In this document: one piece after another, positions 14,731-63,099 of the stretch
How the letters are laid out: each line of letters opens with the position of its first letter
Position numbering within the stretch: position 1 is the stretch's first letter
Assembly: GCA_964565225.1 (NCBI GenBank)
Contig: CAZMEL010000001.1
Span: forward strand, 1,424-65,423
Length of the DNA stretch: 64,000 bases
Reading direction: 5' to 3'
Source of the DNA: an uncultured Thermoanaerobaculia bacterium
Lineage (GTDB): Bacteria; Acidobacteriota; Thermoanaerobaculia; Multivoradales; J023
Translations under genes and position numbers: made by a program
Notes under the pieces: generated by a model
Database searches by the model: none
The model's input: the letters and a program-made list of their open reading frames with translations, nothing else
Told to the model about the DNA's origin: nothing

Positions 14731-14755
14731 TTCCCTGAATCGAGCATAAACCGAC

Positions 14756-24661: not shown

Positions 24662-24686
24662 GATCTGGGTGGGGAAGGAGAGAGCC

Positions 24687-42224: not shown

Positions 42225-42360
42225 ACAACCCTTCACGGGCCGCCGTGCTGTGTGAGCACCGGGCTCCGGAGTCGAGCTTCGGATGCAATTCGGAGCCCAG
42301 CTCTTTGGATCGATGCGACGAATTCCTGTCCTTCTTGGTAACTCGCAGGAGATTTTCGAT

Positions 42361-45300
42361 ATGACTGCTCAAACCCCTACTGATCAGAACTCCACTGATC
42401 GAAATGTCTCAGTGGATGATCTTCATCCGGACAGCATCGCCATCGTGGGCATGGCGTGTCGCTTTCCCGGTGCCGCCGATGTGGAGGCGTTCTGGCGCCT
42501 TCTGGTGGAAGGCCGGGAGGCGATCACGTTCTTTTCCGACGACGAGCTGAAAGAAGCCGGGGTGGATCCCGTCCATTTCGAGCGCGACAACTACGTCAAG
42601 GCCGGCGCCACGCTGGACGATGTGGAGAGCTTCGACGCAGGCTATTTCGACTATCCGGCGCGAGAAGCCGTGACCCTGGACCCCCAGCAGAGAATCTTCC
42701 TGGAGGTCGCCCAAACCGCTCTGGAGTCGTCCTGCCACGCCCCGGAGACCTTCGATGGTCTGATCGGTGTTTTCGCTGGCGGCGCCCAGAACAGCTACTA
42801 TGCGCGCAATCTGGCGGCCGACCCCATGCTGCTCACCACCCCCGAGGGCTTCCAGGCCCACCTGGGGAACGACAAGGATTATCTGGCCACCCGCGTGGCC
42901 TACAAGCTCAACCTCTCCGGGCCGGCGGTGACCGTGCAAACCGCTTGCTCGACCTCCTTGGCCGCCGTTCACCTGGCGGCCCAGTCTCTGCTGGCTGGTG
43001 AATGTGATCTGGCCCTGGCCGGCGGCGTGTCGGTCAAGGTGCCCCATCGGGTGGGTTACTTTCACCAGGACGGTATGCCGTTCTCGGCCGACGGCCATTG
43101 CCGTCCTTTCGATGCCACGGCCTCGGGCACCATCTTCGGCAGCGGTGCCGGCGCCGTGGTGCTCAGGCGCCTGGAAGATGCTTTGCGCGATGGTGATCCC
43201 ATCGATGCCGTGCTGCGCGGCTCGGCGATGAACAACGACGGCTCCTTGAAGATCGGCTTCACCGCGCCGAGCATCGATGGCCAGAGCAAGGTGATCGCCG
43301 AGGCCCTGGCCGTGGCGCGCGTGGATCCGCGAACCATCGGCCACGTGGAAGCCCACGGCACGGCCACCCCCTTGGGAGATCCCATCGAGGTGGACGCCCT
43401 CATCCGCTCTTTCGACGTGGACGAGAAAGGTTTTTGTGCCCTTGGCTCGGTAAAGAGCAACGTGGGCCACCTGGAAACCGCGGCCGGTGTGGCGGGCTTG
43501 ATCAAGTCCGTGCTCATGCTGAGCCGGCGGGTCTTGGTGCCGAGCCTGCACTTCGAGAGCCCGAATCCGGAGATTCCATTCGACGAGAGCCCGTTCTTCG
43601 TGTCTCGGGAGACCCGTCCCTGGGACCGCGATGGCGCACCGCGTCGGGCCGGCGTCTCGTCCTTCGGCATCGGCGGCACCAACGTGCACACAGTGCTCGA
43701 AGAGGCGCCGGCAGTGGCCGAAGATCCCGCTGCTGAGGCCGGACCCCAGGTGCTCACGCTGTCGGCCAAGACTCCTACGGCTCTGGACGCCCTGACCGCG
43801 GCCCTGGCGGAGCAGCTGGCTGCGGACGAAGAGCTCGATCTGGCGGCAGTAGCCCAGACCACCCGTGTCGGCCGGCGCTCCCTGCCGTGTCGCCGCATCC
43901 TGGTGGCCGAGAACAAGGCCGAGGCCGTGGACGCCCTGAAGAACCTCGATCCCAAGCGGGTCTTCACCTTCCAGGCGCCCAGGAGTGGCCGATCGGCGGC
44001 CTTCCTCTTCCCGGGCGGTGGCTCCCAATATGTGGACATGGGGCGGCAGCTCTATGCCCGCGAGCCGGTCTTTCGCCAGACATTGGACCACTGCTTCGAG
44101 CTGTTACGTCCGCTGATGGACGTGGATCCCCACCAGGTTCTCTACCCGTCCGCCGATCATCGGGACCAGGCGGTGGCTCAGCTCAAAGAGACGCCCATCG
44201 CCCTGCCGATCCTGTTCTCGGCAGAATACGCCCTGGCCCGGCTGCTGATCTCTTGGGGCATCGAGCCCGCTGCCATGATCGGCCATTCGAACGGTGAGTT
44301 CGTGGCCGCCACCCTGGCCGGCGTCTTCACTCTGGAGCAGGCCCTCGACGTGGTGGCCCGCCGCGCCGCGCTGATGACCCGTCTGCCCAAGGGTTCCATG
44401 CTCTCCCTCCCCCTGCCGGTGGAGGAGGTGCGGGAGATGGTGGGTGACGACTACTCCATCGCCGCGGTGAACAGCCCCGTCTCCTGCGTGGTGTCGGGCA
44501 CGGTGGAGCAGATCGACGCCCTGGAAGAGAAGCTGGCAAGCCGCGAGCTCGACACCCGCCGGCTGCACATCGCCGTAGGTGCTCACTCCAAGATGGCCGA
44601 TGGCATCGTCGACGATCTGGTGGCGATCGTGGCCGAGCACGACCTGAACGAGCCCACCATTCCCTTCGTGTCCAATGTCACCGGGGATTGGATCCAGCCC
44701 GGAGAGGCAACGGATCCGGCCTATTGGGGCCGCCACCTGCGCCACACCGTGCGTTTCCAAGAGGCGATCGGTCGCCTGATGGAAGACCCGACGCGGATCT
44801 TGATCGAGGTGGGTCCCGGGCAGGCGTTGGGCTCTCTGGCGCGCCAGAACCTGACCACCGGCGAGAATCGCACCCTTCTGGCCACCACTCGCCAGCGCCA
44901 CGACGAGGAGGTTTCCGACTCCGTCCTGCTGGCCGAGAACGTGGCCAAGGTGTGGTTGGTGGGCGGTGCCGTGGACTGGCGCGCAGTCTACGAAGAGCAA
45001 GGTCCGCGGCGTGCCCGCGTGGTCACCTATCCCTTCGAGCGTCGGCGTTATTGGATCGAGGCCCAGAAGAGCGACGCCGGATCCGGCGACCTGGCCGCGC
45101 GCATGCAGACCTGGATGGAGGCCGAGGGCAAAGTCCTGGACCAAGAGAAGTCCGGAGACGACCGCGCCGGCCTGCTGGTGGCCTATGTGGCCCCGCGCGA
45201 CGACATGGAGGAGCGAGTGGCCGACGTCTGGCGCCAATTCTTCGGTATCGACCAGGTGGGCGTGCACGACAACTTCTTCGAGCTGGGAGGCACCTCCCTG

Positions 45301-45525
45301 CTGGCCACTCAATTGGTCAACAGCCTGCAGAAAACTTTCAAGGTGGAGCTCGATGTACCCACCTTTATGCGCTCCGCCACCGTGGCCGAGCTGTCCGAGA
45401 CCTTGGTCCGTCTGCAAGACGAGGAAGAGACGGCCCAAGCCACGGCGGTGCTCGATCGCTTGGAGCAGATGAGTGAAGACGAGATCGCGGCTCTTCTGGC
45501 ACAGACCGAGATGGCCGAAGCTTGA
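42361..45525 (+). CDS. Type I PKS minimal module KS-AT-ACP (no reductive domains), 1054 aa. The AT has atypical motifs.
   Basis: Start taken at ATG 42361 (AGGAG 9 nt upstream). The track ATG at 42283 adds 26 AT3-rich codons that look non-coding. KS TACSTSL, HGTATPLGDPIE, NVGHLETAAG. AT FLFPGGGSQY, GHSNGE, VGAHS. ACP FFELGGTSLLATQL. Confidence 0.9.
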   Translation: MTAQTPTDQNSTDRNVSVDDLHPDSIAIVGMACRFPGAADVEAFWRLLVEGREAITFFSDDELKEAGVDPVHFERDNYVKAGATLDDVESFDAGYFDYPAREAVTLDPQQRIFLEVAQTALESSCHAPETFDGLIGVFAGGAQNSYYARNLAADPMLLTTPEGFQAHLGNDKDYLATRVAYKLNLSGPAVTVQTACSTSLAAVHLAAQSLLAGECDLALAGGVSVKVPHRVGYFHQDGMPFSADGHCRPFDATASGTIFGSGAGAVVLRRLEDALRDGDPIDAVLRGSAMNNDGSLKIGFTAPSIDGQSKVIAEALAVARVDPRTIGHVEAHGTATPLGDPIEVDALIRSFDVDEKGFCALGSVKSNVGHLETAAGVAGLIKSVLMLSRRVLVPSLHFESPNPEIPFDESPFFVSRETRPWDRDGAPRRAGVSSFGIGGTNVHTVLEEAPAVAEDPAAEAGPQVLTLSAKTPTALDALTAALAEQLAADEELDLAAVAQTTRVGRRSLPCRRILVAENKAEAVDALKNLDPKRVFTFQAPRSGRSAAFLFPGGGSQYVDMGRQLYAREPVFRQTLDHCFELLRPLMDVDPHQVLYPSADHRDQAVAQLKETPIALPILFSAEYALARLLISWGIEPAAMIGHSNGEFVAATLAGVFTLEQALDVVARRAALMTRLPKGSMLSLPLPVEEVREMVGDDYSIAAVNSPVSCVVSGTVEQIDALEEKLASRELDTRRLHIAVGAHSKMADGIVDDLVAIVAEHDLNEPTIPFVSNVTGDWIQPGEATDPAYWGRHLRHTVRFQEAIGRLMEDPTRILIEVGPGQALGSLARQNLTTGENRTLLATTRQRHDEEVSDSVLLAENVAKVWLVGGAVDWRAVYEEQGPRRARVVTYPFERRRYWIEAQKSDAGSGDLAARMQTWMEAEGKVLDQEKSGDDRAGLLVAYVAPRDDMEERVADVWRQFFGIDQVGVHDNFFELGGTSLLATQLVNSLQKTFKVELDVPTFMRSATVAELSETLVRLQDEEETAQATAVLDRLEQMSEDEIAALLAQTEMAEA

Positions 45526-45627: not shown

Positions 45628-48600
45628 ATGACGAAAATTGCCGATAAGCTCAGGAATCTCTCCCCCGAAAAGCGCGCTCTCTTCGAGCGTTTGATGGCCG
45701 AAGAAAAGGCCAAGAAAGAGGCCGCTCTGGAAGCCTCGAAATTGGACATCCCCAACTTTCCGTCCGAGCCCGAGAAGCGCTACGAGCCCTTCCCGCTCAC
45801 CGACATCCAACAGGCGCAATGGTTCGGTCGCTCGGGTCTTTTCGAGCTCACCTCCGCGGCCCACGTCTACGTGGAATTCGACAGCGAGGGTCTGGACCTG
45901 GACCGTCTGGAGGAGGTGTGGAACGAGATCGTGAAGGAGAACGATCAGTTGCGCATGAAGGTGCTCGGCGACCTGCGCCAGGTGGTGCTCGAAGAGGTGC
46001 CGTACTACGAATTCAAGCGCATCGACCTCACCGGCAAGTCCGAGAAAGAGGTGGAAGAGAGCCTCGCCGAAACCCGCGCCGACATGGGCCATCAAATCCT
46101 GCCCGCCGATCAGTTCCCTATCTGGGAGGTACGGGCCTCGGTGATCGACGGCGGCCGCCTGCGCCTGCACGTGAGCTTCGATCTGATCGTGGGTGATGCC
46201 TGGAGCTTCCGGGTGCTCATGGATCACTGGGCCCAGCGCTACCACCACGGTGACGAGGCCAAGCGGGAGCCCGTGGACTACTCCTTCCGGGATTACGTGC
46301 ACGCCCTGGAAGCCTTGGAGGAAACCGAGGTCTTCCAGCGGGACCTGGCCTATTGGAAAGAGCAATTGGCCGTGTTGCCCAACCCGCCGGAGCTGCCCAT
46401 GGCCAAACAGCCGAGCGAGCTGGACGAGCATCGCTCCCTTCACTTCACCGATACCGTGGCCGCGAACGTGTGGTCCGAGCTCAAGGGTCGGATCAAAGAT
46501 CACCGATTGACCGCGTCGAACTTCTTCCTCGCCGCCTGGTCCGAGGTGGTCACGGTGTGGACCAAATCCCCCGAGTTCGCCCTCAACGTCACGGTCTTCA
46601 ACCGTCTGCCCGTGCACGAGGACGTGAACGCCGTGCTGGTGGGAGAGTTCAACTCCTTCTGCCTCTTCGGGGTCGACAACTCCGGCAAGCGTCCGTTCCA
46701 CGAGCGTGCCCTGGAGAAGCAGGAGAAGCTGTGGCGCCACATCGACCATCGTACGGTCAGCGGTGTCCGTCAGATGCGCGAGCTGGCACATATTCGCGGC
46801 ACCCAGAGCGGTGGCGCCCTGATGCCTGCGGTCTTCACCTCCACCCTGGCCCACCACGACAGCGAAGGCTGGTCGCCCTCGGTATTCCCGGGCGAATGGG
46901 TCTACGAGGTTTCGCAGACGCCCCAGGTGTGGATGGAGCATCACATCTGGGAGGACGAAGGCAAGCTCGTCCTGCACGTGGACGTGGTCGACGGTGTCTT
47001 TCCCGAGGGCATGTTCGCCGAGGTCTTCGCCGCCTACGTGCAGCTCCTCCACGAGCTGGCTCGAGATCCCGAGGCGTGGAATCGCACCGATGCCCGCCAC
47101 CTGGTGCCGGCCGAGCAGCTGCAGCTGCGGGCCGAGGTGAACAACACCGCCGCCGCCATCTCGGACGAGCTGATGCACGGCCTGATGCGCAAGCAAGCGG
47201 CGGAGCGGGGCGATACCACGGCCGTGATCTCGGCCCGCGGCAACCTCACCTACGCGGAGCTGGACTCGCGCTCCAATCGGGTGGGCCGCTTCCTGCGGGA
47301 GGCCGGCGCCGAGCCCAACGAGCTGGTGGCCGTGGTCATGGAGAAGGGCTGGGAGCAGGCCGTGGCCGCCTACGGCATCCAGAAGTCGGGCGCCGCCTAC
47401 CTCCCCATCGAGCCGGACGTGCCGACGGACCGTCTGCATCACCTGCTGAGCGTGGGTGAGTGCAAATTGGCCCTCACCCAGAGCGAGCTGGTCGCCGAGC
47501 TTTCGTGGCCCGAGGGCGTGCAGGTCTTCGCCGTGGACGGCGACGCCTTCGACGGCGTCTCCGACGAGGCCCTGGAAGATGTCCAGGGCCCGGACGATAT
47601 CGCCTACGTGATCTTCACCTCCGGCTCCACCGGGACCCCCAAGGGTGTGGTGATCTCCCACCGCGGTGCGGTGAACACCATCCTCGACATCAACGAGCGT
47701 TTCCAGGTGGACGCCGAGGATCGGGGCCTGGCCTTGGCGGCCATGGGCTTCGACCTGTCGGTCTACGACCTCTTCGGCACCCTGGCGGCGGGCGGCTCGG
47801 TGGTGATCCCGTCCAAGCAGGATCCGGATCCCTCGGAGTGGGTGCAGCTGATCGCCGAGCACGGCGTCACCCTGTGGAATTCCGTGCCGGCGCTCATGGA
47901 GATGTTGGTCACCCACGCGGAGGGCACCAAGACCGAGCTGCCTTCCTCCCTGCGTCTGGCCCTGCTCTCCGGCGATTGGATTCCTGTGAGCTTGCCCGGA
48001 CGCCTCTCCGCGGTGCGCGAAGGGATCGAGGTGATCAGCCTGGGTGGCGCCACCGAGGCTTCCATCTGGTCGATCCTGCATCCGATCGTGGCGGTGGATC
48101 CGGAGTGGAAGAGCATCCCCTACGGCAAGCCGATGAAGAATCAGACCTTCCACGTGCTGAACGGCGATCTGAAGCCGTGCCCCACCTGGACCACGGGCGA
48201 TCTCTACATCGGTGGCGTGGGTGTGGCCCTGGGCTATTGGCGGGACGACGAGAAGACCGCGGCGTCCTTCTTGGAGCATCCCGAGACCGGCGAGCGGCTC
48301 TACCGCACCGGCGATCTGGGCCGCTACCTGCCCAACGGTGAGATCGAGTTCCTCGGCCGTGAGGACAACCAGGTGAAGGTGCGGGGCTTCCGCATCGAGC
48401 TGGGTGAGATCGAGGAGAACCTCAACAAGGTAGACGGCATCGCGGCGTCCGTGGTGGCGGCCCTCGGGGCGAGCGACAACCGTCGCCTGGTGGCCTATGT
48501 CGTGCCCGCGGACGGCACCGAGCTGGACACCGAGGCCGTGCAAAAGGCCCTGGGCGCCAAGCTGCCGGAGTACATGCTGCCCCAGAGCTACGTCGCCATG

Positions 48601-48987
48601 GAGGCCCTGCCCCTGACCGCCAACGGCAAGGTGGATCGCAAGAATCTGCCGGCTCCCGAGGATGTGGGCAAGGAGAACGTCTACGTGGCGCCGCGCAACG
48701 AGGCCGAGGAGAAGCTAGCCCAGCTGTGGCAAGAAGTGCTGGACGTGGAAAAGGTGGGTGTTTACGACGACTTCTTCGAGCTGGGTGGCAACTCCCTCCT
48801 GGCCAATCAGCTCCTCTTCCGGGTCCACGACGCCTTCGGCATCGAGCTGCCCCTCTCCAAGCTCTTCGAAGCCACCACCATCGACAAGGTGGCTGTGCTC
48901 TTGGAAGAGACCTTGATCGCCCAGATGGAGGGTATGAGTGAGGAGGAGATCCAACGCCTGCTGGAAGAGGAGGCGGTAGGTGTCTGA
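45628..48987 (+). CDS. NRPS module Cy-A-PCP, Cys-type A domain, 1119 aa.
   Basis: Cy FPLTDIQQAQWFGR and SFDLIVGDAWS near 46180. A domain FDLSVYDLFGTLAAG, TLWNSVPALMEM, LLSGDWIPVSLP, GGATEASIWSILH; by eye this fits the Cys code DLYNLSLIWK. No Ox insertion. PCP FFELGGNSLLANQL. Confidence 0.95.
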   Translation: MTKIADKLRNLSPEKRALFERLMAEEKAKKEAALEASKLDIPNFPSEPEKRYEPFPLTDIQQAQWFGRSGLFELTSAAHVYVEFDSEGLDLDRLEEVWNEIVKENDQLRMKVLGDLRQVVLEEVPYYEFKRIDLTGKSEKEVEESLAETRADMGHQILPADQFPIWEVRASVIDGGRLRLHVSFDLIVGDAWSFRVLMDHWAQRYHHGDEAKREPVDYSFRDYVHALEALEETEVFQRDLAYWKEQLAVLPNPPELPMAKQPSELDEHRSLHFTDTVAANVWSELKGRIKDHRLTASNFFLAAWSEVVTVWTKSPEFALNVTVFNRLPVHEDVNAVLVGEFNSFCLFGVDNSGKRPFHERALEKQEKLWRHIDHRTVSGVRQMRELAHIRGTQSGGALMPAVFTSTLAHHDSEGWSPSVFPGEWVYEVSQTPQVWMEHHIWEDEGKLVLHVDVVDGVFPEGMFAEVFAAYVQLLHELARDPEAWNRTDARHLVPAEQLQLRAEVNNTAAAISDELMHGLMRKQAAERGDTTAVISARGNLTYAELDSRSNRVGRFLREAGAEPNELVAVVMEKGWEQAVAAYGIQKSGAAYLPIEPDVPTDRLHHLLSVGECKLALTQSELVAELSWPEGVQVFAVDGDAFDGVSDEALEDVQGPDDIAYVIFTSGSTGTPKGVVISHRGAVNTILDINERFQVDAEDRGLALAAMGFDLSVYDLFGTLAAGGSVVIPSKQDPDPSEWVQLIAEHGVTLWNSVPALMEMLVTHAEGTKTELPSSLRLALLSGDWIPVSLPGRLSAVREGIEVISLGGATEASIWSILHPIVAVDPEWKSIPYGKPMKNQTFHVLNGDLKPCPTWTTGDLYIGGVGVALGYWRDDEKTAASFLEHPETGERLYRTGDLGRYLPNGEIEFLGREDNQVKVRGFRIELGEIEENLNKVDGIAASVVAALGASDNRRLVAYVVPADGTELDTEAVQKALGAKLPEYMLPQSYVAMEALPLTANGKVDRKNLPAPEDVGKENVYVAPRNEAEEKLAQLWQEVLDVEKVGVYDDFFELGGNSLLANQLLFRVHDAFGIELPLSKLFEATTIDKVAVLLEETLIAQMEGMSEEEIQRLLEEEAVGV

Positions 48988-50467
48988 GCTCGCCACCCGC
49001 CGCAGTCGTCTGACAGCGGCTCAGCGTGCGTTGCTCGCAAAGCGACTGCGGGGTCAGGAGAGCAAGGCGGCAGGACAATCGCCCGCCGCCTTGCCCACCC
49101 TCGAGCCCGATTCCGCGGCCGCTCTGGAGCCATTCCCGCTGCTGGACGCCCAAGCCCTTCTGTGGCGCGGACGCAACGGCGAGCGAGAGCTGGGCGGCGT
49201 GTCACCCCACGTGTACCTGGAGGCGGAGCGGTCGGAGCTGGATCTGGCGCGTTTCGAAAGCACGTTCCAAGCCCTGGTTCGGCGCCACCCCATGTTGCGG
49301 GCCGTGGTCCGCGACGGTCGCCAGGTGGTGCTGGGCGAGGTGCCGGACTACACGGTGAAAGTGTTCGACTTGCGTGAGGAAACGCCGGTGGAGCAGGAAC
49401 GCCGTCTGTCCGTGATCCGCGAGCGCATGTCCCACAGCGAACGATGTCCGGACTCGTGGCCGCTCTTCGAGGTGCGGGTCACACGTTTGGCCGCCGACCG
49501 CTTCCGTATCCATGCGGATTTCGACCTTCTGCCCATGGATCTGCCGAGCCTGGAGTTCCTCTGCCTGGAATGGCGCAAGCTCTACGAAGGGCAGGGTCTT
49601 CCCGATGTGCCATTCGCTTTCCGCGACTATGCGATCACCTGCGAACGCTTCAAATCGGCGGAGCTCTATCGCCGGTCCCTGAAGCATTGGCAGGAGCGCT
49701 TGCCGCAGCTACCGCCGGCCCCGGATCTTCCCTTGGCGCGGGATCCCCGGAGCATCACCCGGCCGCGCTTCGTTCGTTGGGCCGCAGAAATGCCGGCGGC
49801 GGAGTGGGGGCGGATCAAGGAGTGTGCCGCGGCCGAGGGTTTGACTCCGTCCGTGGTGCTCATGGCCGCGTTCGGCGATGTCTTGGCCGTGGCGGGAGCG
49901 GGTCGCCGCTTCACCCTCGGTTCCACCCTCTTCAATCGTTTGCCGGTGCATCCGCGGGTGATGGAGGTTCTGGGGCAGTACACATCCACCAGCTTGACCG
50001 AGGTGGACGTGGATGCGCATGGCACCTTCCTCGACCGTTGTCGACACCTCCAAGAGCAGCTCTGGAAGGATCTGGAGCACGGCTATGTGGATGCCTCCGC
50101 CCTGCTTGCCGAGCAACGACGGAAGGCCGGCGAGGACAGACCGGTGACGCCGGTGATTTTCACCAGCGCCCTGGCTCACTTCGAGGAAGCCGGAGACGTG
50201 CCTCCCACCCGCTGGCTCGGCGAGCCTTGTCACGCCGTGGCAGAGCGGGCCGAAACCTGGATGGAGCATTTGGTGCTGGAGAACGCCGGCACCCTGGAGT
50301 ATTCCTGGGACGTGGTGGAAGGGCTTTTCCCGGACCACCTGATCTCGAATCTCTTCGACCTTTACGGGCAGGCACTGGAGCGTCTCGCCGAGTCCGCCGA
50401 GGTGTGGACCCGGCGGGCGGACCCCATGGATCTGTGGCCTTCGGCCACGGTGCTCGCCTCTTGCTGA
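48980..50467 (+). CDS. Free-standing heterocyclization (Cy) domain protein, 495 aa, with no A or PCP domain.
   Basis: A GTG start overlaps the end of the preceding gene by 8 nt. Cy hallmarks PFPLLDAQALLWRGR and HADFDLLPMDLPS (DxxxxDxxS) near 49520. The length equals one C/Cy domain. Confidence 0.85.
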   Translation: MSELATRRSRLTAAQRALLAKRLRGQESKAAGQSPAALPTLEPDSAAALEPFPLLDAQALLWRGRNGERELGGVSPHVYLEAERSELDLARFESTFQALVRRHPMLRAVVRDGRQVVLGEVPDYTVKVFDLREETPVEQERRLSVIRERMSHSERCPDSWPLFEVRVTRLAADRFRIHADFDLLPMDLPSLEFLCLEWRKLYEGQGLPDVPFAFRDYAITCERFKSAELYRRSLKHWQERLPQLPPAPDLPLARDPRSITRPRFVRWAAEMPAAEWGRIKECAAAEGLTPSVVLMAAFGDVLAVAGAGRRFTLGSTLFNRLPVHPRVMEVLGQYTSTSLTEVDVDAHGTFLDRCRHLQEQLWKDLEHGYVDASALLAEQRRKAGEDRPVTPVIFTSALAHFEEAGDVPPTRWLGEPCHAVAERAETWMEHLVLENAGTLEYSWDVVEGLFPDHLISNLFDLYGQALERLAESAEVWTRRADPMDLWPSATVLASC

Positions 50468-50553: not shown

Positions 50554-53500
50554 ATGTCAGCCGTGATCACAGAAGAATTGAAAGATAGAAAACAAAAGTT
50601 GAGCTCCGCTCAGCTGGCCTTGTTGCAAAAGCGCCTACGGGGTGAGATGGAGCAGGTCAAGCCCATCGAGCCGGACGTCGAAAATCTTTTCGAGCCGTTC
50701 CCCATGACCGAGATGTGTGAGGCCCAATGGATGGGTCGCAACGAAGCCTACGAGCTGGGTGGGGTTTCGGCCCACGCCTACGCCGAGATGTTCGACGGCC
50801 CCATGGATATCGAGGCCTTCGAGCGCGCCTGGAACACCCTGGTGGACCACTACGAGATGTTTCGCGCCATCGTGGGTAAGGACGGTCAATACCGCATCCT
50901 GCCCCGCGACGAGGTGGAACCCTACAAGGTGGAGGTGGTGGACCTGCGCCAGAAGTCCCAAGAGGAGAAGGACGCCTACCTGGCCGAGGTGCGGGACGAG
51001 TGGCGCCGGGAGATCATGCCCGGCGACGAGTGGCCCCTGTTCAAGTTCCGCGCCTCGATCATCGAGGACGACCACATCCGCCTGCACGCCAGTCTGGATC
51101 TCTTGATCACCGACATCGGCAGCTTGCAGCGCATCGGTCGCCAGCTCACCAAGCTCTACGAAGATCCGAGCTACGACCTGGGCGAGCCCACGGAGCTGTC
51201 GTTCCGCGACTACAACATGGCGGTCACCGCCTTCCGCAAGCATCCGCTCTACGAGAAGTCGGAGCAGTATTGGCTGTCCCGCCTGGACACCCTACCGCCG
51301 GCCCCGGACATGCCCGTGGCGCGGGATCCCGAGAAGGTGGAGTACCCCTATTTCACCCACGACCGGCGGATCATCCCCGCAGATATCTGGCAGAAATTCC
51401 AGGAGCGGTCGCGCAAGTTTGGCCTGACGCCGGACGTCACCATGAACGCGGTCTATGCCGACATCGTGGCCACCTGGGCCAAGCGCCAGACCTTTACCCT
51501 GAATGTGCTGTCGTTCAAGCGCCTGCCCATCCATCGGGACGTCAACAAGTTGGCGGGCAACTTCGGCTCCACCATTCTCCTGGAGGTGAGCGATTGGGGT
51601 GGCCGCCCGTTCGTGGACCGGGCCAAGGGCCTGCACTCGCAATTGCTCAAGGACCTGGACCATTGGTTCTACTCCGGCGTCACCATGTTGCGTGAGCTGA
51701 ACCGCCACAAGGGCGGCGCCCGCGGCGCGTCCATGCCCGTGGTCTTCGCCTCCACCCTAAACTACTCGGTGGAGGGCACCCTGCTCGACTCCGAGAACTT
51801 CTGGGACAAGTACATGACCCAGCTCTACCTGCAAACGCCGCAGGTGTGGCTGGACCATCAGATCGCCGAGGACGACGGCGAGCTGCACCTGGAGTGGGAT
51901 CGAGTGGAAGAGCTCTTCCCCGAGGGCATGACCGCAGACATGCTCGACGCCTACGAAAATCTGGTCACCTACCTGGCGGAGAGCGATGATCCGTGGGTGG
52001 CTTCGAGTCGCCGTCACGTTCTGCCCGAGGCCCATCGGGCGGCCCACAGCGAGCTCAACTCGACCGATGGGGCGGTGTCCGACGAGCTGTTGCACACCCT
52101 TTTCGCCCGTCAAGCCGAGGAGCGGCCGGACCAAAAGGCCGTGGTCACCGATTCGCGCATCCTGAGCTACGCCGAGGTGGACGAGATGTCCAATCAGGTG
52201 GCCCATTGGCTCGTGGACCAAGGCGTGAAGCCCAATCGTTTCGTGGCCCTGGCCATGAAGAAGGGTTGGGAGCAGGTGGTGGCCGCCCTGGCGGTGCACA
52301 AGGCCGGGGCCGCTTACCTGCCGGTGGATCCGGACACGCCGACGGAGCGTTTGGCCTACTTGCTGGAGAACGCCGGTGCGACCCTGGTTCTCACCCAAGA
52401 GGACTTGGCGAGCGAGATCACCTGGCCCGAGGGTGTGGAGCATCTGGCCATGGACGGTGATCTGTCGTCCCTCTCCACAGATGCCCTCGACACCGTGCAG
52501 GGCCCGGACGACATCGCCTACATGATCTACACCTCGGGCTCCACCGGTCGTCCCAAGGGCGTGGTGATCGATCACCGCGGCGCGGTGAACACGATCCTCG
52601 ATATCAACGAGCGTTTCGGCATCGGTGCCGAGGACGCGGTGCTCGGCATCTCGGCCATGAGCTTCGACCTTTCGGTCTACGACCTCTTCGGCACCCTGGC
52701 CGCTGGCGCCACCCTGGTGCTGCCCAAGGAGCTGAAGACGCCGGATCCGGCCTACTGGGCGGAGCTGGTACAGCGCGAGAACGTCACCGTTTGGAACTCC
52801 GTGCCGGCCCTGATGGAGCTGGTGACCGAATATGTGGAGAGCCATTCCAAAGCGGCCGACACTCTCGGCTCCCTGCGTCTGGCCCTGCTGTCGGGCGATT
52901 GGATCCCGGTCTCTCTGCCCGATCGTCTGCGCGCCGTGGCCGAGAACGTAAAGGTGGTGAGCTTGGGCGGTGCCACCGAGGCGTCCATCTGGTCGATCCT
53001 GCACGAGGTCGACGCGGTGGATCCGGAGTGGTCGAGCATCCCCTACGGGCGTCCGATGAAGAACCAGCGCTTCTACGTGCTCGACGATTACCTCGATCCC
53101 AAGCCCTTCTGGGTGCCCGGCGACCTCTACATCGGCGGCATCGGGGTGGCGCGGGAGTACTGGGGCGACGAGGAGAAGACCCGGGCGTCGTTCATCATTC
53201 ACCCGGAATCCGGCGATCGCCTCTACAAGACCGGCGATCTGGGATTTCTGCATCCGGACGGGTACATCGTCTTCCTCGGTCGTGAGGATCTGCAGGTGAA
53301 GGTGCGGGGTTTCCGTATCGAGCTGGGGGAAATCGAGGCCCAGATCGCGAGCCATCCGGCGGTGGAATCCGCCGTGGTGGTTGCCATGGGTGCCGACAGT
53401 GAGACCCGCCGCCTGGTGGCCTACGTGGTGGCCGTAGAAGGGGAGTCCGTCGATGCCGAGACCATCACGGCCTACGCCGCCGAGCGGCTGCCCGAGTACA

Positions 53501-53940
53501 TGTTGCCGGCCAATGTGCAGGTGATCGAGACCCTGCCCCTCACCCCCAACGGCAAGGTGGACCGGCGGTTCCTCGCCGATCCCCAATCCCTGGAGCAGTG
53601 GCAGAAGAGCAAGGTCTACGTGGCTCCGCGCACCGAGACCGAAACCGAGGTGGCGGCCATCTGGGCGTCCATGCTCGACCTGGAGCGAGTGGGTGTCGAA
53701 GACAACTTCTTCGAGCTCGGCGGCACCTCTCTGTTGGTGAACCAGATGGCGGCGCGAATCTACGACGCTTTCGGCATCGAGCTGTCCATGGGCATCGTTT
53801 TCGAGAGCCCCACGGTGACCGCCATGGCCGAGGCCATCGACGCCGCCCTGGAGAACCCGGACCTGCAGCAGGCGGACGACTCCATGGCTGTGGAGGATCT
53901 GGAGGCGGAAGCCGCCCTCGATCCCAGCCTCGGCGTCTAG
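50554..53940 (+). CDS. NRPS module Cy-A-PCP, Cys-type A domain, 1128 aa.
   Basis: Cy FPMTEMCEAQWMGR and HASLDLLITDIGS near 51100. A domain FDLSVYDLFGTLAAG, TVWNSVPALMEL, LLSGDWIPVSLP, GGATEASIWSILH. PCP FFELGGTSLLVNQM. Long nearly identical nucleotide stretches are shared with gene 45628..48987. Confidence 0.95.
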   Translation: MSAVITEELKDRKQKLSSAQLALLQKRLRGEMEQVKPIEPDVENLFEPFPMTEMCEAQWMGRNEAYELGGVSAHAYAEMFDGPMDIEAFERAWNTLVDHYEMFRAIVGKDGQYRILPRDEVEPYKVEVVDLRQKSQEEKDAYLAEVRDEWRREIMPGDEWPLFKFRASIIEDDHIRLHASLDLLITDIGSLQRIGRQLTKLYEDPSYDLGEPTELSFRDYNMAVTAFRKHPLYEKSEQYWLSRLDTLPPAPDMPVARDPEKVEYPYFTHDRRIIPADIWQKFQERSRKFGLTPDVTMNAVYADIVATWAKRQTFTLNVLSFKRLPIHRDVNKLAGNFGSTILLEVSDWGGRPFVDRAKGLHSQLLKDLDHWFYSGVTMLRELNRHKGGARGASMPVVFASTLNYSVEGTLLDSENFWDKYMTQLYLQTPQVWLDHQIAEDDGELHLEWDRVEELFPEGMTADMLDAYENLVTYLAESDDPWVASSRRHVLPEAHRAAHSELNSTDGAVSDELLHTLFARQAEERPDQKAVVTDSRILSYAEVDEMSNQVAHWLVDQGVKPNRFVALAMKKGWEQVVAALAVHKAGAAYLPVDPDTPTERLAYLLENAGATLVLTQEDLASEITWPEGVEHLAMDGDLSSLSTDALDTVQGPDDIAYMIYTSGSTGRPKGVVIDHRGAVNTILDINERFGIGAEDAVLGISAMSFDLSVYDLFGTLAAGATLVLPKELKTPDPAYWAELVQRENVTVWNSVPALMELVTEYVESHSKAADTLGSLRLALLSGDWIPVSLPDRLRAVAENVKVVSLGGATEASIWSILHEVDAVDPEWSSIPYGRPMKNQRFYVLDDYLDPKPFWVPGDLYIGGIGVAREYWGDEEKTRASFIIHPESGDRLYKTGDLGFLHPDGYIVFLGREDLQVKVRGFRIELGEIEAQIASHPAVESAVVVAMGADSETRRLVAYVVAVEGESVDAETITAYAAERLPEYMLPANVQVIETLPLTPNGKVDRRFLADPQSLEQWQKSKVYVAPRTETETEVAAIWASMLDLERVGVEDNFFELGGTSLLVNQMAARIYDAFGIELSMGIVFESPTVTAMAEAIDAALENPDLQQADDSMAVEDLEAEAALDPSLGV

Positions 53941-54051
53941 AACGTCGCCACCCACATGAGCCCGGGGGCGCCTTCTAGCGGCTCCGGGCTCCTTTCCCCG
54001 TTCGTCCCCCGGGACGCTCTTGGGGAAGCCTCGTCCCAAGGAGACGAAAAC

Positions 54052-55239
54052 ATGGCCGAAAAGCCCGATTTCAAAAGCTTCGAGCTGAATCCGAATCCCC
54101 GAGCCGTGCTGCTCACCGGTGCCACCGGTTTCCTCGGCGCCTTCCTGCTCCGGCAGCTCTTGGACCTCACCGAGGCCAAGGTGTATTGCCTGGTGCGGGC
54201 CGCCACTTTCTGGGAAGCGGAAGAGCGGTTGATCCGCAATCTCAAGCACTTCAAGTGCTGGGACGAAAAAGACGCTCCGCGCATCCAGCCGGTGGTGGGG
54301 GATCTGTCCAGGCCCCTGCTCAACTTGTCGGAGCGGGATTTCAAGCGCCTGGCCGCCAAGGTGGACGCCCTCTACCACAACGGCGCCTTCGTCAATTTCA
54401 TTCACCCCTATGCGCGCCTCCGGGCGGCCAACGTCCAGGGTACCCAAGAGATGGTGCGCCTGGCGGTGACCGAGAAGGTGAAGCCTCTGCATTACACCTC
54501 CACCTTGCGCATTTTCGGCAACTGGGCCGGCGAGGGCGGCGTGGTGCGCGAGACCGACCGAGCCCAGCAGAGCCAGGTGATTTCCAGCGGCTATTCCCAG
54601 AGCAAGTGGGTGGCCGAGCGCATGGTGCACAATGCCGGCGAGGGAGGTGTGCCCTTCACCGTCTTTCGTCCGGGCATGGTCACCGGCGACACGGTGAACG
54701 GCATGGCCAACTTCGACGACATCGTGGGCCGCATGATCAAAGGCTGCATCCAGATGGGGCAGGCTCCCGAGAAGGACATGCTGCTGGACTTCACGCCTGC
54801 GGACTGGGCGACTCGGGCCATGGTCAAGCTGACTCTGGACCCGAGGGCCCTGGGAGGCACGTACCACCTGGTGACGCCCCATCCGATCTCGTGGAACGAG
54901 GTCGTGGAACACGTGCGGGCTCTGGGCTATTCCCTGGAGCGGGTGGCCTACGGCCCGTGGCTCGAAGATCTCAAGAAGGCGGCCCAGACCGGCACGCCCG
55001 AGAGCAACGCCTTGATTCCCCTGCTGTCGTATTTCGCCGAGGAGATGCCCGACGAGGTGGCCAACCGGCGCTTCGACTGCAGCGCCTTGCTCGGTCTTCT
55101 GGACGGTGAGGATGCGGAATGCCCGCGGGTGGATCTGCCGCTTCTCAAGACCTATTTCCAGGCCTACATCACCGAGGGCTTCCTCGAGCCGCCGCCGGTG
55201 GGCGAGCTGGCTCGCCGCTCCTTGGTGGGTGTGGCCTGA
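54052..55239 (+). CDS. Free-standing NRPS-type thioester reductase (R domain, SDR fold), about 395 aa.
   Basis: ATG 54052 is preceded by AAGGAGA; the track start at 53956 is an extension. NAD(P) fold LLTGATGFLGAFLL, catalytic YSQSK, and the long C-terminal substrate lobe typical of terminal R domains. Confidence 0.85.
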   Translation: MAEKPDFKSFELNPNPRAVLLTGATGFLGAFLLRQLLDLTEAKVYCLVRAATFWEAEERLIRNLKHFKCWDEKDAPRIQPVVGDLSRPLLNLSERDFKRLAAKVDALYHNGAFVNFIHPYARLRAANVQGTQEMVRLAVTEKVKPLHYTSTLRIFGNWAGEGGVVRETDRAQQSQVISSGYSQSKWVAERMVHNAGEGGVPFTVFRPGMVTGDTVNGMANFDDIVGRMIKGCIQMGQAPEKDMLLDFTPADWATRAMVKLTLDPRALGGTYHLVTPHPISWNEVVEHVRALGYSLERVAYGPWLEDLKKAAQTGTPESNALIPLLSYFAEEMPDEVANRRFDCSALLGLLDGEDAECPRVDLPLLKTYFQAYITEGFLEPPPVGELARRSLVGVA

Positions 55240-55250
55240 GGGGGAATGTG

Positions 55251-56051
55251 ATGAACGCCACGGCCACGGCGAGACGACCCGCGATGGGCTCTTGCTTCAC
55301 CTGTGTGACTTCCAATCCACTGGCATTCCTGAGGGTTTTCTGTCTGCCCTTTGCCGGTGGATCGGCCACGGTTTTCCGCGAATGGCACCGCAAGCTCACA
55401 CCGGCCGTAGAGGTGGTGCCCGTGGAGATTCCGGGTCGCGGAACCCGCTTCAAAGAGCCGCCGATCTCGGACCTCGTGGAGCTGGTGAGTCTCCTGGCGG
55501 ATCAGATCGAAGACCATGTGGACTCCCTACCCTATGTGTTTTTCGGCTACAGCATGGGTGGGCACATCGCCTACGAGCTGACCCGGGAGCTGCGTCGGCG
55601 GGGCCGGTCCCTGCCGGTGCATCTCTTCGTGGCCGCGGCCATCGCGCCGCGGGGTCGCAAGCCCGAGCCGCCCTTGCATTCCATGAGCGACGAGGAGCTG
55701 ATCGCCGAGCTCGAGGCCTTCGACGGAACACCGCCCGGGGTGCTCGACAACCCCAACATCATGGGCACGCTGATGCCCGGAATCCGAGCCGATTTTGCCC
55801 TCAGCGAAACCTATTCCTACGTGTCGGAAGCACTCCTGGAGATGCCCTTGACCGTTTACGGCGGTGAGAGAGATCACGCGGTGCTGCGTTCGGATCTGGA
55901 GCTGTGGGAGAGAGAGACCCGCGGTCCGTTCCAGCTGGAGATGCTACCCGGAGGCCATTTCTTCCTCTTCGACTGTGAGAAGGAGCTGTTGCGCAAGCTG
56001 TCGGCAGCCTTTCACGGGGTGGCCAAGCGGGTGGCCCTCACCGGTGGGTGA
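55251..56051 (+). CDS. Type II (editing) thioesterase, alpha/beta hydrolase, 266 aa.
   Basis: Start taken at ATG 55251; the track start at 55119 overlaps the R gene. FCLPFAGGSA oxyanion region, GYSMGG nucleophile elbow, and a C-terminal GGHFF block with the catalytic His. Confidence 0.85.
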   Translation: MNATATARRPAMGSCFTCVTSNPLAFLRVFCLPFAGGSATVFREWHRKLTPAVEVVPVEIPGRGTRFKEPPISDLVELVSLLADQIEDHVDSLPYVFFGYSMGGHIAYELTRELRRRGRSLPVHLFVAAAIAPRGRKPEPPLHSMSDEELIAELEAFDGTPPGVLDNPNIMGTLMPGIRADFALSETYSYVSEALLEMPLTVYGGERDHAVLRSDLELWERETRGPFQLEMLPGGHFFLFDCEKELLRKLSAAFHGVAKRVALTGG

Positions 56052-56186: not shown

Positions 56187-57401
56187 ATGTCGAGCTTGCT
56201 TGTCGCTGCGGCGAAAGCCCGCCGTGCTCAAAAACGTCCGGCGGCACCGCCCCTGACGATGCTGTTGGACGAAGAGCAGGATTTTCAGAAAGAAATCCGT
56301 CGCTTTGCCGAAAAAGAGATCAAGCCTCAGGTGTCCGACATGGACACCGCCGCGGAAATGCCTCGTGGTCTGATCGACCAGCTCTTCGAGCTCGGCGTGT
56401 TGGGATCCGAGGTGCCGGACGCTCTCGGCGGTGCCGGCGCCTCCTTCTTCTCCGGCATCCTGGCGATCGAAGAGCTGGCCAAGGTGGATCCGGCAGTAGC
56501 GGTCTTGGTCCACGTGCACAATGTCCTGGTTACCAAGACCCTGCTCAAATGGGGCTCGGACGACCTGAAGGCCCGTTACCTGCCCTTGCTCACCGACGGC
56601 ACGGTGGCCGCCTACAGCCTGTCGGAAGCGGAATCGGGCAGTGATGCCTTCGCCATGAAATCCACGGCCGTGCGACGCGGTGACTATTTCGTCCTCGACG
56701 GGCGCAAGCTGTGGTGCACCAGCGCCGCCGAAGCCGGTCTCTTCCTGATCTTCGTCAACGCCGCGCCGGAGAAGGGGGTTCGGGGCATCACGGGTTTCCT
56801 GGTGGAGCGAGACACTGAGGGCCTACAGATCGGCCGGCGGGAGGACAAGATGGGCATCCGCGCCAGCTCTACCTGCGAGCTGGTGCTCGACGGCGTCAAG
56901 GTGCCAGCGAAGCAAATGCTCGGCACCCTGGGTAGCGGTCAGGATGTGATCACCGACGGACTGGTGAAAGGCCGAATCGGCATCGCGGCCCAGATGGTCG
57001 GTCTGGCGCAGGGGGCCCTGGACGCCGCCGTTGCCTATGCTCATGAACGGCGCCAGTTCGGCCAACGGATCTCGTCCTTCCAGGGCGTCCACTTCCCTTT
57101 GTCCGAGATCGCCACCGAGATCGAGGCGGCGCGTCTCCTGGTATACAACGCCGCCCGTCTGTTGGAGACCGGGGCGCCCCATTTCAAGCTCTCGACCCCT
57201 ACGTCTATGGCCAAGCTCTTCGCCTCCAGAGTGGCGGAGCGGGCAGCGTCTCAAGCGGTAGAAACCCTGGGAGGCAATGGATTCAGCAAGGAATATCCGG
57301 TGGAGAAATTCTACCGCGACGCCAAGATCGGTCAGATCTACGAAGGCACGTCCAATATTCAGTTGCGCACCATCGCCACCGGTCTCTTCCAACGACTGTG
57401 A
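56187..57401 (+). CDS. Acyl-CoA dehydrogenase (short/branched-chain type), 404 aa.
   Basis: Typical ACAD blocks YSLSEAESGSDAFAMKSTA, the GIRASSTCEL region, and C-terminal YEGTSNIQLRTIA with the catalytic Glu context. A possible internal start lies at MLLDEEQDF. Confidence 0.9.
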   Translation: MSSLLVAAAKARRAQKRPAAPPLTMLLDEEQDFQKEIRRFAEKEIKPQVSDMDTAAEMPRGLIDQLFELGVLGSEVPDALGGAGASFFSGILAIEELAKVDPAVAVLVHVHNVLVTKTLLKWGSDDLKARYLPLLTDGTVAAYSLSEAESGSDAFAMKSTAVRRGDYFVLDGRKLWCTSAAEAGLFLIFVNAAPEKGVRGITGFLVERDTEGLQIGRREDKMGIRASSTCELVLDGVKVPAKQMLGTLGSGQDVITDGLVKGRIGIAAQMVGLAQGALDAAVAYAHERRQFGQRISSFQGVHFPLSEIATEIEAARLLVYNAARLLETGAPHFKLSTPTSMAKLFASRVAERAASQAVETLGGNGFSKEYPVEKFYRDAKIGQIYEGTSNIQLRTIATGLFQRL

Positions 57402-62076: not shown

Positions 62077-63099
62077 ATGCTCATCGACTATCGAAGCGAC
62101 ACCGTCACCAAACCCACTCCCGCGATGCTGGAGCGAATGTTCCGAGCCGAGGTCGGCGACGCTATTTTTGGCGACGATCCAACGGTCCTCGAGCTCGAAC
62201 GCACCGCCGCCGATCTCTTCGGCACGCCTGGCGCTCTCTTCTGCCCTTCCGGCACGATGACCAACCAGATCGCGATCCGGGTCCATACCCGGCCCGGCGA
62301 CCAGCTGATCTGCGATCGGACCGCCCACGTCTACCTCTACGAGGGAGGCGGAGCGGCCCTGCACTCCGGGGTCACCTGCAAGTTGCTCGAGGGTGACGCC
62401 GGGCGCTTCACCTCGGGCCAGGTCGAGGCCGCCATCCAGGCCGACGATCCCCACCTTCCCTGGAGCCGGCTCGTCTGCTTCGAGAACACCAGCAACAAGG
62501 GGGGCGGCACGCTCTGGGATCTCGCCGAGATCCGGAAGATCCACGAGCTCTGCACCGCGAAGGGTCTGGCCCTCCATCTCGATGGCGCCCGCCTCTTCAA
62601 CGCCCTGGTCGCCACCGGCGAATCGCCCGCGACCTACGGGGAGATCTTCGACTCGATCTCGATCTGTCTCTCGAAAGGTCTGGGAGCACCGATCGGCTCC
62701 CTGCTGCTCGGCGACGAAGCCTTCCTCCACGCCGCCAACCGCATGCGCAAGGCCTTCGGTGGCGGCATGCGCCAGGCCGGTTACCTCGCGGCAGCCGGGC
62801 TCCATGCCCTGGAGCACCATGTCGACCGCCTCCGGGTCGATCACGACCACGCGTCCCGGCTGCGCGACGCGCTCACCGGCTCCGACCTGCCGGGCACCGC
62901 TCTACCTGGCGACACGAACCTGGTGATGTTCGATTTCGAGACTCCGGAGGCCCTCCAGGGCTTCATCGAAACGTTGCGGCTCCACGGCATCCTCGCGGCC
63001 CCGATGGGAGCCACCCTTCTTCGCCTGGTGACACACCTCGACATCTCCGAGGAGATGGTGGAGCGGACGATCGAGGTGATCGAGAGAGTGGCAACCTGA
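62077..63099 (+). CDS. ltaE: Low-specificity L-threonine aldolase (PLP-dependent), 340 aa.
   Basis: Colinear with E. coli LtaE: DLRSDTVT/DYRSDTVTKPTPAML, GDDVYGDDPTV, SLENT/CFENTSNKGGG, HLDGARLFNA, ICLSKGLGAPIGS (PLP-Lys), GGGMRQAG, LVTHLDIS. Confidence 0.85.
   Translation: MLIDYRSDTVTKPTPAMLERMFRAEVGDAIFGDDPTVLELERTAADLFGTPGALFCPSGTMTNQIAIRVHTRPGDQLICDRTAHVYLYEGGGAALHSGVTCKLLEGDAGRFTSGQVEAAIQADDPHLPWSRLVCFENTSNKGGGTLWDLAEIRKIHELCTAKGLALHLDGARLFNALVATGESPATYGEIFDSISICLSKGLGAPIGSLLLGDEAFLHAANRMRKAFGGGMRQAGYLAAAGLHALEHHVDRLRVDHDHASRLRDALTGSDLPGTALPGDTNLVMFDFETPEALQGFIETLRLHGILAAPMGATLLRLVTHLDISEEMVERTIEVIERVAT

Follow-up and report, generated by a model that had tools for sequence, protein, structure and literature searches.

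A free-standing thioester reductase and its N-terminal motif on the upstream synthetase suggest reductive release in trans in a hybrid polyketide-nonribosomal peptide cluster

RESULTS

A discrete thioester reductase gene follows the last synthetase gene

The DNA considered here is a 64,000-nucleotide stretch (the window; G+C content, about 65%) from an uncultured Thermoanaerobaculia bacterium (GenBank assembly GCA_964565225.1, contig CAZMEL010000001.1), and it sits within a 456-kb metagenome-assembled scaffold (ENA ERZ23499148, SUHA22-1_SAMN20336539_METAG-scaffold_14). Its G+C content and the TubC_N docking domains encoded in it would by themselves hint at an organism resembling myxobacteria. 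The plus-strand genes from 16286 to 57401 form one co-directional hybrid polyketide synthase (PKS)/nonribosomal peptide synthetase (NRPS) cluster. Near the 3' end of this cluster, the gene of the last NRPS (N3) is followed by a separate gene for a thioester reductase (R), and the relationship between these two proteins is the subject of this report. The features concerned are as follows, with positions given in window coordinates (Cy, heterocyclization domain; A, adenylation domain; PCP, peptidyl carrier protein; TE, thioesterase; ACAD, acyl-CoA dehydrogenase).

50554 to 53940, plus strand: N3, final NRPS of the line, Cy-A(Cys)-PCP; the PCP serine belongs to GGTS, nucleotides (nt) 53719 to 53730
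53887 to 53937, plus strand: C-terminal tail of N3, AVEDLEAEAALDPSLGV, the conserved R-domain N-terminal motif DLxAEAvLDPxI
53941 to 54051, plus strand: N3-R spacer, 111 nt, with an AAGGAG Shine-Dalgarno sequence at 54038 to 54043
54052 to 55239, plus strand: R, free-standing thioester reductase, 395 amino acids (aa), TIGR01746 and PF07993
55251 to 56051, plus strand: type II TE, 266 aa, PF00975, with GYSMGG and GGHFF
56187 to 57401, plus strand: ACAD-family flavoprotein, by family match

As originally predicted, a stand-alone R with the motifs TGATGFLG and YSQSK (open reading frame [ORF] 54052 to 55239) comes directly after the last PCP-containing gene. It is not fused in cis to the last carrier protein and starts 111 nt past the N3 stop codon. 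Longer, mechanically listed ORFs at 53956 to 55239 and 55119 to 56051 over-extend the R and TE genes, respectively. An identical 395-aa R gene call was obtained from the ENA metagenome-assembled scaffold and from the Logan assembly of run SRR15216809.

R matched the TIGR01746 "thioester reductase domain" profile from end to end (profile positions 2 to 371 of 371; 332.8 bits against a cutoff of 213.35), and PF07993 as well. The Gly-rich NAD(P)H-binding motif TGATGFLG (TGxxGxxG) occupies R residues 22 to 29 (nt 54115 to 54138), with only about 20 residues ahead of the Rossmann fold, and the catalytic YSQSK (YxxxK) occupies residues 181 to 185 (nt 54592 to 54606); HYTSTL upstream of the latter supplies the Ser/Thr. 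These YxxxK and Ser/Thr catalytic residues were invariant in two homologue alignments. By sequence, the best solved relative was the MxaA R domain (4u7w; 338 bits), the CpkC thioreductase also being among the best, and the AlphaFold model of R superposed on the MxaA R domain (4w4t/4u7w) with a template modeling (TM) score of 0.92 and a root mean square deviation of 2.5. These results indicated that R is a genuine member of the thioester reductase family. The original prediction had allowed that R might be an unrelated NAD-dependent epimerase/dehydratase without the long C-terminal domain; this is not the case, the full-length profile match including the C-terminal substrate subdomain.

Three other assignments of R were rejected. 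Scores for sugar epimerase/dehydratase families were far under their cutoffs. A redox-inactive, Dieckmann-cyclase-type R* domain was set aside, the Tyr, the Lys, and the cofactor motif all being intact. Thiazoline reductases of the PchG/YbtU type constitute a different protein family, and R gave no such family match.

No TE domain was found by the domain scan of the eight PKS/NRPS proteins (16286 to 53940), which upholds the earlier claim that no module ends in one. Likewise, neither the 7.5 kb before the window nor the 1.2 kb seen after it, where the genes are unrelated and on the opposite strand, contained a TE-bearing synthetase of the kind that might have overturned that claim from outside. 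The discrete TE matched PF00975 over profile positions 2 to 224 of 226, with GYSMGG at nt 55545 to 55562 and a C-terminal GGHFF. Its best solved relative was the type II TE RifR (157 bits), followed by RedJ, SrfAD, and YbtT, from which it shows no notable difference in fold family, size, or GxSxG/GxH motifs.

The C terminus of N3 carries the N-terminal motif of the reductase

The 120 best R homologues were surveyed for what precedes the Rossmann fold. In nearly all of those bearing an N-terminal extension, whether PCP-fused, a TubC_N beta-hairpin, or a "KRALL" helix, the motif DLxAEAvLDPxI (in its fuller form, (I/V)DLxAEAvLDPxI(x)P) was present 20 to 30 residues ahead of the Gly-rich loop. The window R is without this motif. 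It is found instead at the end of N3, whose C terminus reads ...VEDLEAEAALDPSLGV. When the N3 tail was joined to the N terminus of R, the combined sequence aligned colinearly with 29 fused PCP-R homologues, the N3 tail falling on the motif and KPDFKSFELNPNPRAVLL falling on the segment that follows it.

Whether the last NRPS ends in a docking or COM-like tail, and whether R begins with a matching element, had been posed as checks on the original prediction, and neither was found. At the other interfaces of the cluster, the C termini of the fourth PKS protein (PKS4) and the second NRPS (N2) are of an acidic type (...MSE(D/E)EIxxLL...), and the N termini of N2, a free-standing Cy protein, and N3 are LSxxQRALLxKRLRG helices; the end of N3 is not of the MSExEIxxLL type. 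R itself, with its roughly 20 residues before the Rossmann fold, gave no PF18563 match and, unlike its homologues P0044, P0046, and P0056, carries no TubC_N-type beta-hairpin docking domain. Taken together, the comparisons indicated that the N3 tail is not a docking tail of the COM or short linear motif (SLiM) type. It is a motif that belongs to the N-terminal end of the R domain and that stayed on N3 when the gene was split.

In a solved PCP-R didomain, about 35 residues N-terminal to the Rossmann fold wrap the R core after a disordered PCP-R linker, and the PCP itself contacts R (PMC8024701). AlphaFold2 prediction of PCP plus tail plus R gave a predicted local distance difference test (pLDDT) value of 88 for EDLEAEAALD, 51 for the preceding linker, and above 94 for the core; when the 37 spacer-encoded residues were included as a loop, the motif scored 89, the loop 29 to 50, and the R N terminus 87. 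These values are per-residue confidences obtained with an alignment input built from fused homologues.

The same split recurs in divergent loci

N3 and the R-containing ORF share a reading frame, with a single TAG (53938 to 53940) between them. The 37 codons after the N3 stop have no counterpart in the aligned fused homologues, and the Shine-Dalgarno sequence lies 8 nt ahead of the R ATG. No promoter- or terminator-like site in the N3-R-TE region rose above the shuffled background; therefore, co-transcription of N3 and R is likely. Folding prediction gave GC-rich hairpins without a U-tract for the spacer RNA (-63.5 kcal/mol over nt 53925 to 54070; z = -2.4 versus shuffles), and the corresponding spacer of a related locus, L171, contains an inverted repeat too. 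Such hairpins might regulate R translation, or they might be there by chance in GC-rich DNA.

Four other, divergent loci have the same split, with R proteins 42 to 65% identical to that of the window. In L003 (R 65% identical; spacer of 62 nt, in a frame unlike that of the window), the upstream carrier protein terminates in VEDLAADAELDPSIGI; in L171 (50%; 97 nt), in ALANEAVLDPSIG; in L005/L006 (48%; 8 nt), in ELASEAVLDASILG; and in L007 (42%; 9 nt), where R follows the acyl carrier protein (ACP) of a PKS, in DLEADIVLDPSIR, each directly before the stop codon. The break thus falls 1 or 2 residues past LDxSI/L, and a tail consensus, [DE]L..[ED]A.LD.S[IL], is kept together with its terminal position in five lineages, the linker ahead of the motif being variable. 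L171 is fully syntenic with the window (beta-hairpin docking domain-Cy-A-oxidase [Ox]-PCP, ketosynthase [KS]-acyltransferase [AT]-ACP, Cy-A-PCP, Cy, Cy-A-PCP, R, TE, and ACAD), and identities are 58% for N3 (orthologue P0246), 50% for R, 44% for the TE, and 60% for the ACAD. Since the same break occurs in divergent loci whose spacers and frames differ, the comparison indicated that the fission of the R gene is real and conserved.

By nearest-neighbor identity and a neighbor-joining (NJ) tree, the window R, P0002, and the L171 R formed one clade that also included two relatives without the motif, and the R proteins P0007 and P0012 adjoined docked or fused R proteins. From these placements the same break point probably arose at least three times independently, the phylogenetic evidence for this being weak. 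Two motif-less R proteins, L089:6001-7365 and L004:2281-3522, have C-terminal extensions; that of the L089 protein, a hydrophobic stretch (...LLCMGVLLAAALLAFN...), might anchor it in the membrane.

A scan of GTDB species representatives, made with aligned R proteins of the split type, revealed no further split R among the best 80 loci, where identity was at most 45% and nearly all loci had R within a long motif-bearing ORF. A scan of metagenome contigs similarly gave none among the matches listed (80 loci inspected; best identity, 43%). When the C-terminal 130 residues of N3 served as a protein query, 120 C-terminal PCP fragments were recovered, all without an R-type tail; they were short NRPS ends with ordinary "LSDxEVxxLL"-type tails. 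The split architecture is rare, at least among the C-terminal PCP fragments searched. A literature search, of incomplete coverage, found no description of a reductase split after its own N-terminal motif.

Organization of the remainder of the assembly line

The cluster members upstream of N3, as read from a Pfam domain scan and the terminal sequences, are as follows (DH, dehydratase; ER, enoylreductase; KR, ketoreductase).

16286 to 24661, plus strand: first PKS protein, KS-AT-DH-ER-KR-ACP
24669 to 31388, plus strand: second PKS protein, KS-AT-DH-ER-KR-ACP
31417 to 37878, plus strand: third PKS protein, KS-AT-DH-ER-KR-ACP
37875 to 42224, plus strand: first NRPS (N1), TubC_N-Cy-A-Ox-PCP (Pfam TubC_N, Condensation, AMP-binding, Nitroreductase, and PP-binding)
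42283 to 45525, plus strand: PKS4, KS-AT-ACP without a KR, with the C-terminal docking tail "...MSEDEIAALL..."
45628 to 48987, plus strand: N2, Cy-A(Cys)-PCP, with A-domain code DLYNLSLIWK and DxxxxDxxS
48980 to 50467, plus strand: free-standing Cy protein, a full-length heterocyclization domain with DxxxxDxxS

The first PKS protein gave two AT matches and two carrier protein matches and reads as a mixed loading/extension module. A saturated acyl tail is the expected product of the three fully reducing PKS proteins. Next in line, N1 (Cy motif DxxxxDxxS; A-domain code DLFNIASIWK) is an EpoB-like thiazole-forming module, the first heterocycle being a thiazole because N1 contains an oxidase insert. 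PKS4 has no KR, and the beta-keto group would therefore be kept. N2 has the N-terminal helix "LSPEKRALFERL" and the C-terminal docking tail "MSEEEIQRLLEEE".

The heterocyclization signature DxxxxDxxS is borne by all four C-type domains (N1, N2, the free Cy, and N3). The A-domain codes were DLFNIASIWK for N1 and DLYNLSLIWK, a Cys code, for both N2 and N3; the code positions of the GrsA reference sequence used in the extraction reproduced DAWTIAAICK. The free Cy protein contains neither a carrier nor an A domain, its start overlaps the N2 end by 8 nt, and its best solved matches were the Cy domain of EpoB (269 bits) and the bacillamide Cy domain. Orthologues are present at L004:735-2228, L089:4503-6008, and L171:8414-9907. 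Its N-terminal docking helix, LTAAQRALLAKRLRG, is of the same kind as that of N3, so that the free Cy and N3 could both dock on the single C-terminal tail of N2.

In the bacillamide enzyme BmdB, the Thr of "VFTS" is needed for cyclodehydration. At the positions that we take to correspond to the two residues reported as critical for cyclodehydration in the bacillamide Cy domain (the "VFTS" Thr and the "QVxLD" Asp, mapped by alignment), the pair is T/D in N1, T/E in N2 and in the free Cy, and A/D in N3. From these residues, N3 may condense without cyclizing, or the free Cy may supply the cyclization. The terminal unit of the chain that reaches R would derive from Cys: a thiazoline or, should N3 fail to cyclize, a cysteinyl residue.

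The ACAD and resemblance to pyridine-forming assembly lines

The ACAD is always within a gene or two of R in the related loci L003, L004, L005/L006, L089, and L171, where it is 59 to 72% identical to that of the window and R is only 41 to 65% identical. Among solved structures, short/branched-chain ACAD and cyclohexanecarboxyl-CoA dehydrogenase are the nearest to it. In caerulomycin biosynthesis, the ACAD-like flavoprotein CaeB1 oxidizes Cys-S-PCP, in a line that forms a pyridine ring (PMC8149447). The likeness of the window ACAD to CaeB1 is at the family level and was compared by description.

The window line resembles those of caerulomycin, collismycin, karnamicin, and oxazolismycin in having an EpoB-like Cy-A-Ox-PCP, then a KS-AT-ACP without a KR, a Cy-A(Cys)-PCP, and an extra C-type domain, together with an ACAD-family protein, a discrete type II TE, one further NRPS module, and no cis TE. 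The known lines comprise CaeA2 (KS-AT-ACP-Cy-A-PCP-Ct), the flavoprotein CaeB1, CaeA3 (C-A-PCP), and the type II TE CaeA4, with an EpoB-like thiazole module in KnmA3. The window departs from this arrangement in several respects. Its KS-AT-ACP and Cy-A(Cys)-PCP are on separate proteins joined by docking elements; its extra domain is a free-standing, full-length Cy with an intact DxxxxDxxS, in contrast to the shortened, His-less, flavoprotein-recruiting Ct that follows the PCP in caerulomycin; its last module is a Cy-A-PCP with a Cys code, whereas theirs is a C-A-PCP for an auxiliary Leu; and it adds a thioester reductase. The amidohydrolase that removes the auxiliary Leu in caerulomycin-type lines was absent from the flanking genes. 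Moreover, in L005/L006 the set of Cy-A-PCP-tail, R, and ACAD follows a module containing a C-methyltransferase, a KR, and an ACP, which would leave no beta-keto group. Membership of the window line in the caerulomycin/karnamicin pyridine-forming family is thus not established by this analogy.

The type II TE is co-conserved in L003, L004, L089, and L171, and none was found in the stretch seen of L005/L006, although R and the ACAD are kept there. Between R and ACAD in L005/L006, the TE is replaced by a 257-aa protein (L005:7272-8045; L006:4784-5557) that has no Pfam match and contains HELEEHGH, recalling heme-oxygenase-like diiron oxidases.

Surrounding genes

Just 5' of the PKS genes (10653 to 16078, plus strand) lie genes for an MMPL/RND-type transporter, an S-adenosylmethionine-dependent methyltransferase, a LolA-like lipoprotein carrier (PF17131), and a 440-aa protein for which no family match was found. 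The LolA-like and 440-aa genes recur beside the related cluster in L089 (L089:10214-12416). Such a neighborhood suggests that a lipid product is exported to the outer membrane. Farther upstream, a phage tail sheath gene (2506 to 4080, minus strand) is part of a PVC/eCIS-like contractile injection system operon that adjoins the biosynthetic cluster and extends beyond the window (L172:10001-21575), with sheath, tube, baseplate, Pvc16_N, and AAA ATPase genes. At the downstream edge of the cluster, a gene for a GntG-family pyridoxal phosphate-dependent aldolase (62077 to 63099, plus strand; 368 bits, which exceeds the NCBIfam cutoff) comes after genes for FG-GAP/ASPIC and SGL/NHL beta-propeller proteins.

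DISCUSSION

Reductive off-loading in trans by the discrete R is the best-supported reading of this cluster, in agreement with the original prediction, and we regard it as likely. It is the most economical explanation, since there is no cis TE and R is a genuine free-standing thioester reductase that matches TIGR01746 over its full length. In the mechanism that we propose, an ancestral Cy-A-PCP-R gene, as the alignments make it appear, was cut within the N-terminal segment of the R domain. The fission would have left the first part of that segment (...DLEAEAALDPSLGV) as the extreme C terminus of N3 and the remainder as a gene in its own right, co-transcribed with N3 and preceded by a ribosome-binding site. 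The retained tail would still bind its old site on the R core, tethering R to the PCP through a flexible linker as in the fused enzymes, and R would then use NAD(P)H to reduce the peptidyl or heteroaryl thioester on the N3 PCP to an aldehyde, possibly continuing to a primary alcohol as MxaA does. The RifR-like type II TE would clear mis-primed or stalled carrier proteins and might provide a hydrolytic bypass like CaeA4. The ACAD would act on a carrier-bound Cys-derived intermediate, which is the least certain step of the scheme.

The N3 tail is thus probably the handle by which R is recruited, as both its conservation and the structure predictions suggest. A more specific proposal is that the "...DLxAEAxLDPS(I/L)G" tail is a self-derived docking tag, R having been split within its N-terminal wrap so that the carrier-borne fragment reconstitutes with the free R; on this proposal we are evenly divided. 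Such docking by fragment complementation would be distinct from COM, SLiM/beta-hairpin, and helical docking domains, and it may have come about repeatedly, seemingly at one break point, in both NRPS and PKS contexts.

Several observations weigh against this scheme. That the tail and R associate in trans is deduced from conservation and per-residue AlphaFold confidence. The two closest motif-less relatives come from L004 and L089, whose R proteins are 51% and 41% identical, respectively, to that of the window; there, R comes directly after a free Cy gene, which it overlaps in L089, and no protein neighboring R in either locus has the tail motif. The motif is therefore dispensable for R function in those loci, and another recruitment route must exist, perhaps via the free Cy, which might serve as an adaptor for R. 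The reduction could take two or four electrons, so that the product end could be an aldehyde or an alcohol. Finally, release might in fact be the work of the type II TE, as has been proposed for KnmA4 and CaeA4.

The L004 and L089 arrangement also underlies the strongest alternative, namely that the tail is a neutral relic and that R is recruited through generic PCP-R contacts (via the helix-turn-helix of the C-terminal subdomain) or through the free Cy as an adaptor. It draws further support from the contact between PCP and R in the solved didomain (PMC8024701). A useless tail, however, would be expected to decay or to be truncated, whereas the consensus and its terminal position have been retained in five lineages whose R proteins are only 42 to 65% identical and whose linkers have varied freely, and AlphaFold treats the tail as ordered. 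We therefore consider a neutral relic unlikely.

A second alternative is that the type II TE is the real hydrolytic off-loader and that R tailors another carrier-bound thioester or acts after release. By comparison with the karnamicin and caerulomycin lines, a discrete type II TE without a cis TE is normal for such a line; in caerulomycin, karnamicin, and oxazolismycin biosynthesis, the type II TE is a discrete protein that accompanies an acyl-CoA dehydrogenase, and it is credited with a non-essential role in release (PMC8149447, PMC9838390, PMC12308425). These are, in architecture, the closest characterized lines, and two of the studies credit such a TE with release (PMC9838390, PMC12308425); the co-conservation of the TE in L003, L004, L089, and L171 also favors this alternative. 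Nevertheless, CaeA4 was dispensable for product formation in vitro (PMC8149447), the window TE groups with the editing enzymes RifR, RedJ, SrfAD, and YbtT, and L005/L006 retain R and ACAD with no TE in the stretch seen. In addition, the full-length thioester reductase match and the presence of an R motif on the last PCP protein point to that PCP as the substrate of R. Release by the TE thus seems quite improbable. Of the original description of this protein as a type II editing thioesterase, the type II assignment stands (PF00975, GYSMGG, RifR-like), and the restriction to editing was an assumption, in view of the release role credited to CaeA4-type TEs.

That the split is an assembly artefact or a recent inactivating mutation, with an in-frame TAG interrupting a fused Cy-A-PCP-R gene, is suggested by N3 and the R ORF being in the same frame one stop codon apart, but this explanation is effectively refuted and carries a negligible probability, given that the 37 post-stop codons are unmatched in fused homologues, with which the N3 tail and the R N terminus are colinear without them, that the R start codon has a consensus Shine-Dalgarno sequence ahead of it, that four further divergent loci show the same split although their spacers measure 8, 9, 62, and 97 nt and their frames vary, and that two assemblies agree on the R gene call.

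An aldehyde product, as originally predicted, is not established, the nearest solved homologue being an alcohol-forming enzyme: the MxaA R domain performs a four-electron reduction to the alcohol. The predicted N-terminal thiazoline is not borne out either; the heterocycle in question would be made by the Cy-A-Ox-PCP of N1 after three PKS proteins and would hence be a mid-chain thiazole. Closure to a thiazolidine or imine, which had also been suggested, needs a free N-terminal amine or Cys, and the chain starts with a polyketide acyl tail. Because the chain offers no amine or thiol at its N terminus with which a C-terminal aldehyde could react, a lugdunin-like thiazolidine or imine is unsupported. 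It is possible, although we hold it to be doubtful, that the unit of N2, free Cy, and ACAD carries out a caerulomycin-type pyridine formation, in which case the product would be a lipid-tailed thiazolyl-pyridine-thiazoline aldehyde or alcohol.

With respect to other known reductases, the window R shares the TIGR01746 family, the motifs, and a presumed thioester reduction with the R domains of MxaA (myxalamid; 4u7w/4w4t) and MxcG and with the thioreductase of CpkC (8v1x). In those enzymes the R domain is fused and contains the motif, whereas the window R is a separate protein whose N-terminal motif is on the upstream NRPS. Discrete reductases are not in themselves new. Zmn14 of zeamine biosynthesis is a separate R protein that acts in trans to free a chain from its carrier (PMC5811116), as is presumed for the window R, and beta-hairpin docking domains have been noted on thioester reductases (PMC9113145); the window R, unlike the latter, has neither a beta-hairpin nor a helical docking element. 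Of the original statement that free-standing R proteins are uncommon and that R is normally fused, the second half agrees with the genome scan, in which most of the best 80 loci had R within a long ORF with the motif. The first half is not supported, many of the 120 best R hits being proteins of 370 to 480 aa with TubC_N beta-hairpin or helical N-terminal docking elements. What appears to be new is the fission inside the N-terminal wrap of R, with the fragment kept on the carrier protein.

A discrete R together with a type II TE is, by itself, not surprising. Reductive release sets the terminus of the product, be it an aldehyde warhead, an alcohol, or a cyclic imine, and trans-acting release enzymes are attractive parts for assembly-line engineering. 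If the 15- to 17-residue tail suffices for the recruitment of R, it would be a tiny, natural, and portable tag by which reductive release might be brought to any carrier protein, and it would let genome mining match orphan R genes to their carrier proteins by a simple sequence criterion. Moreover, the set of Cy-A-PCP, R, type II TE, and ACAD and its resemblance to pyridine-forming lines make this cluster a candidate source of new thiazole-rich lipid chemistry.

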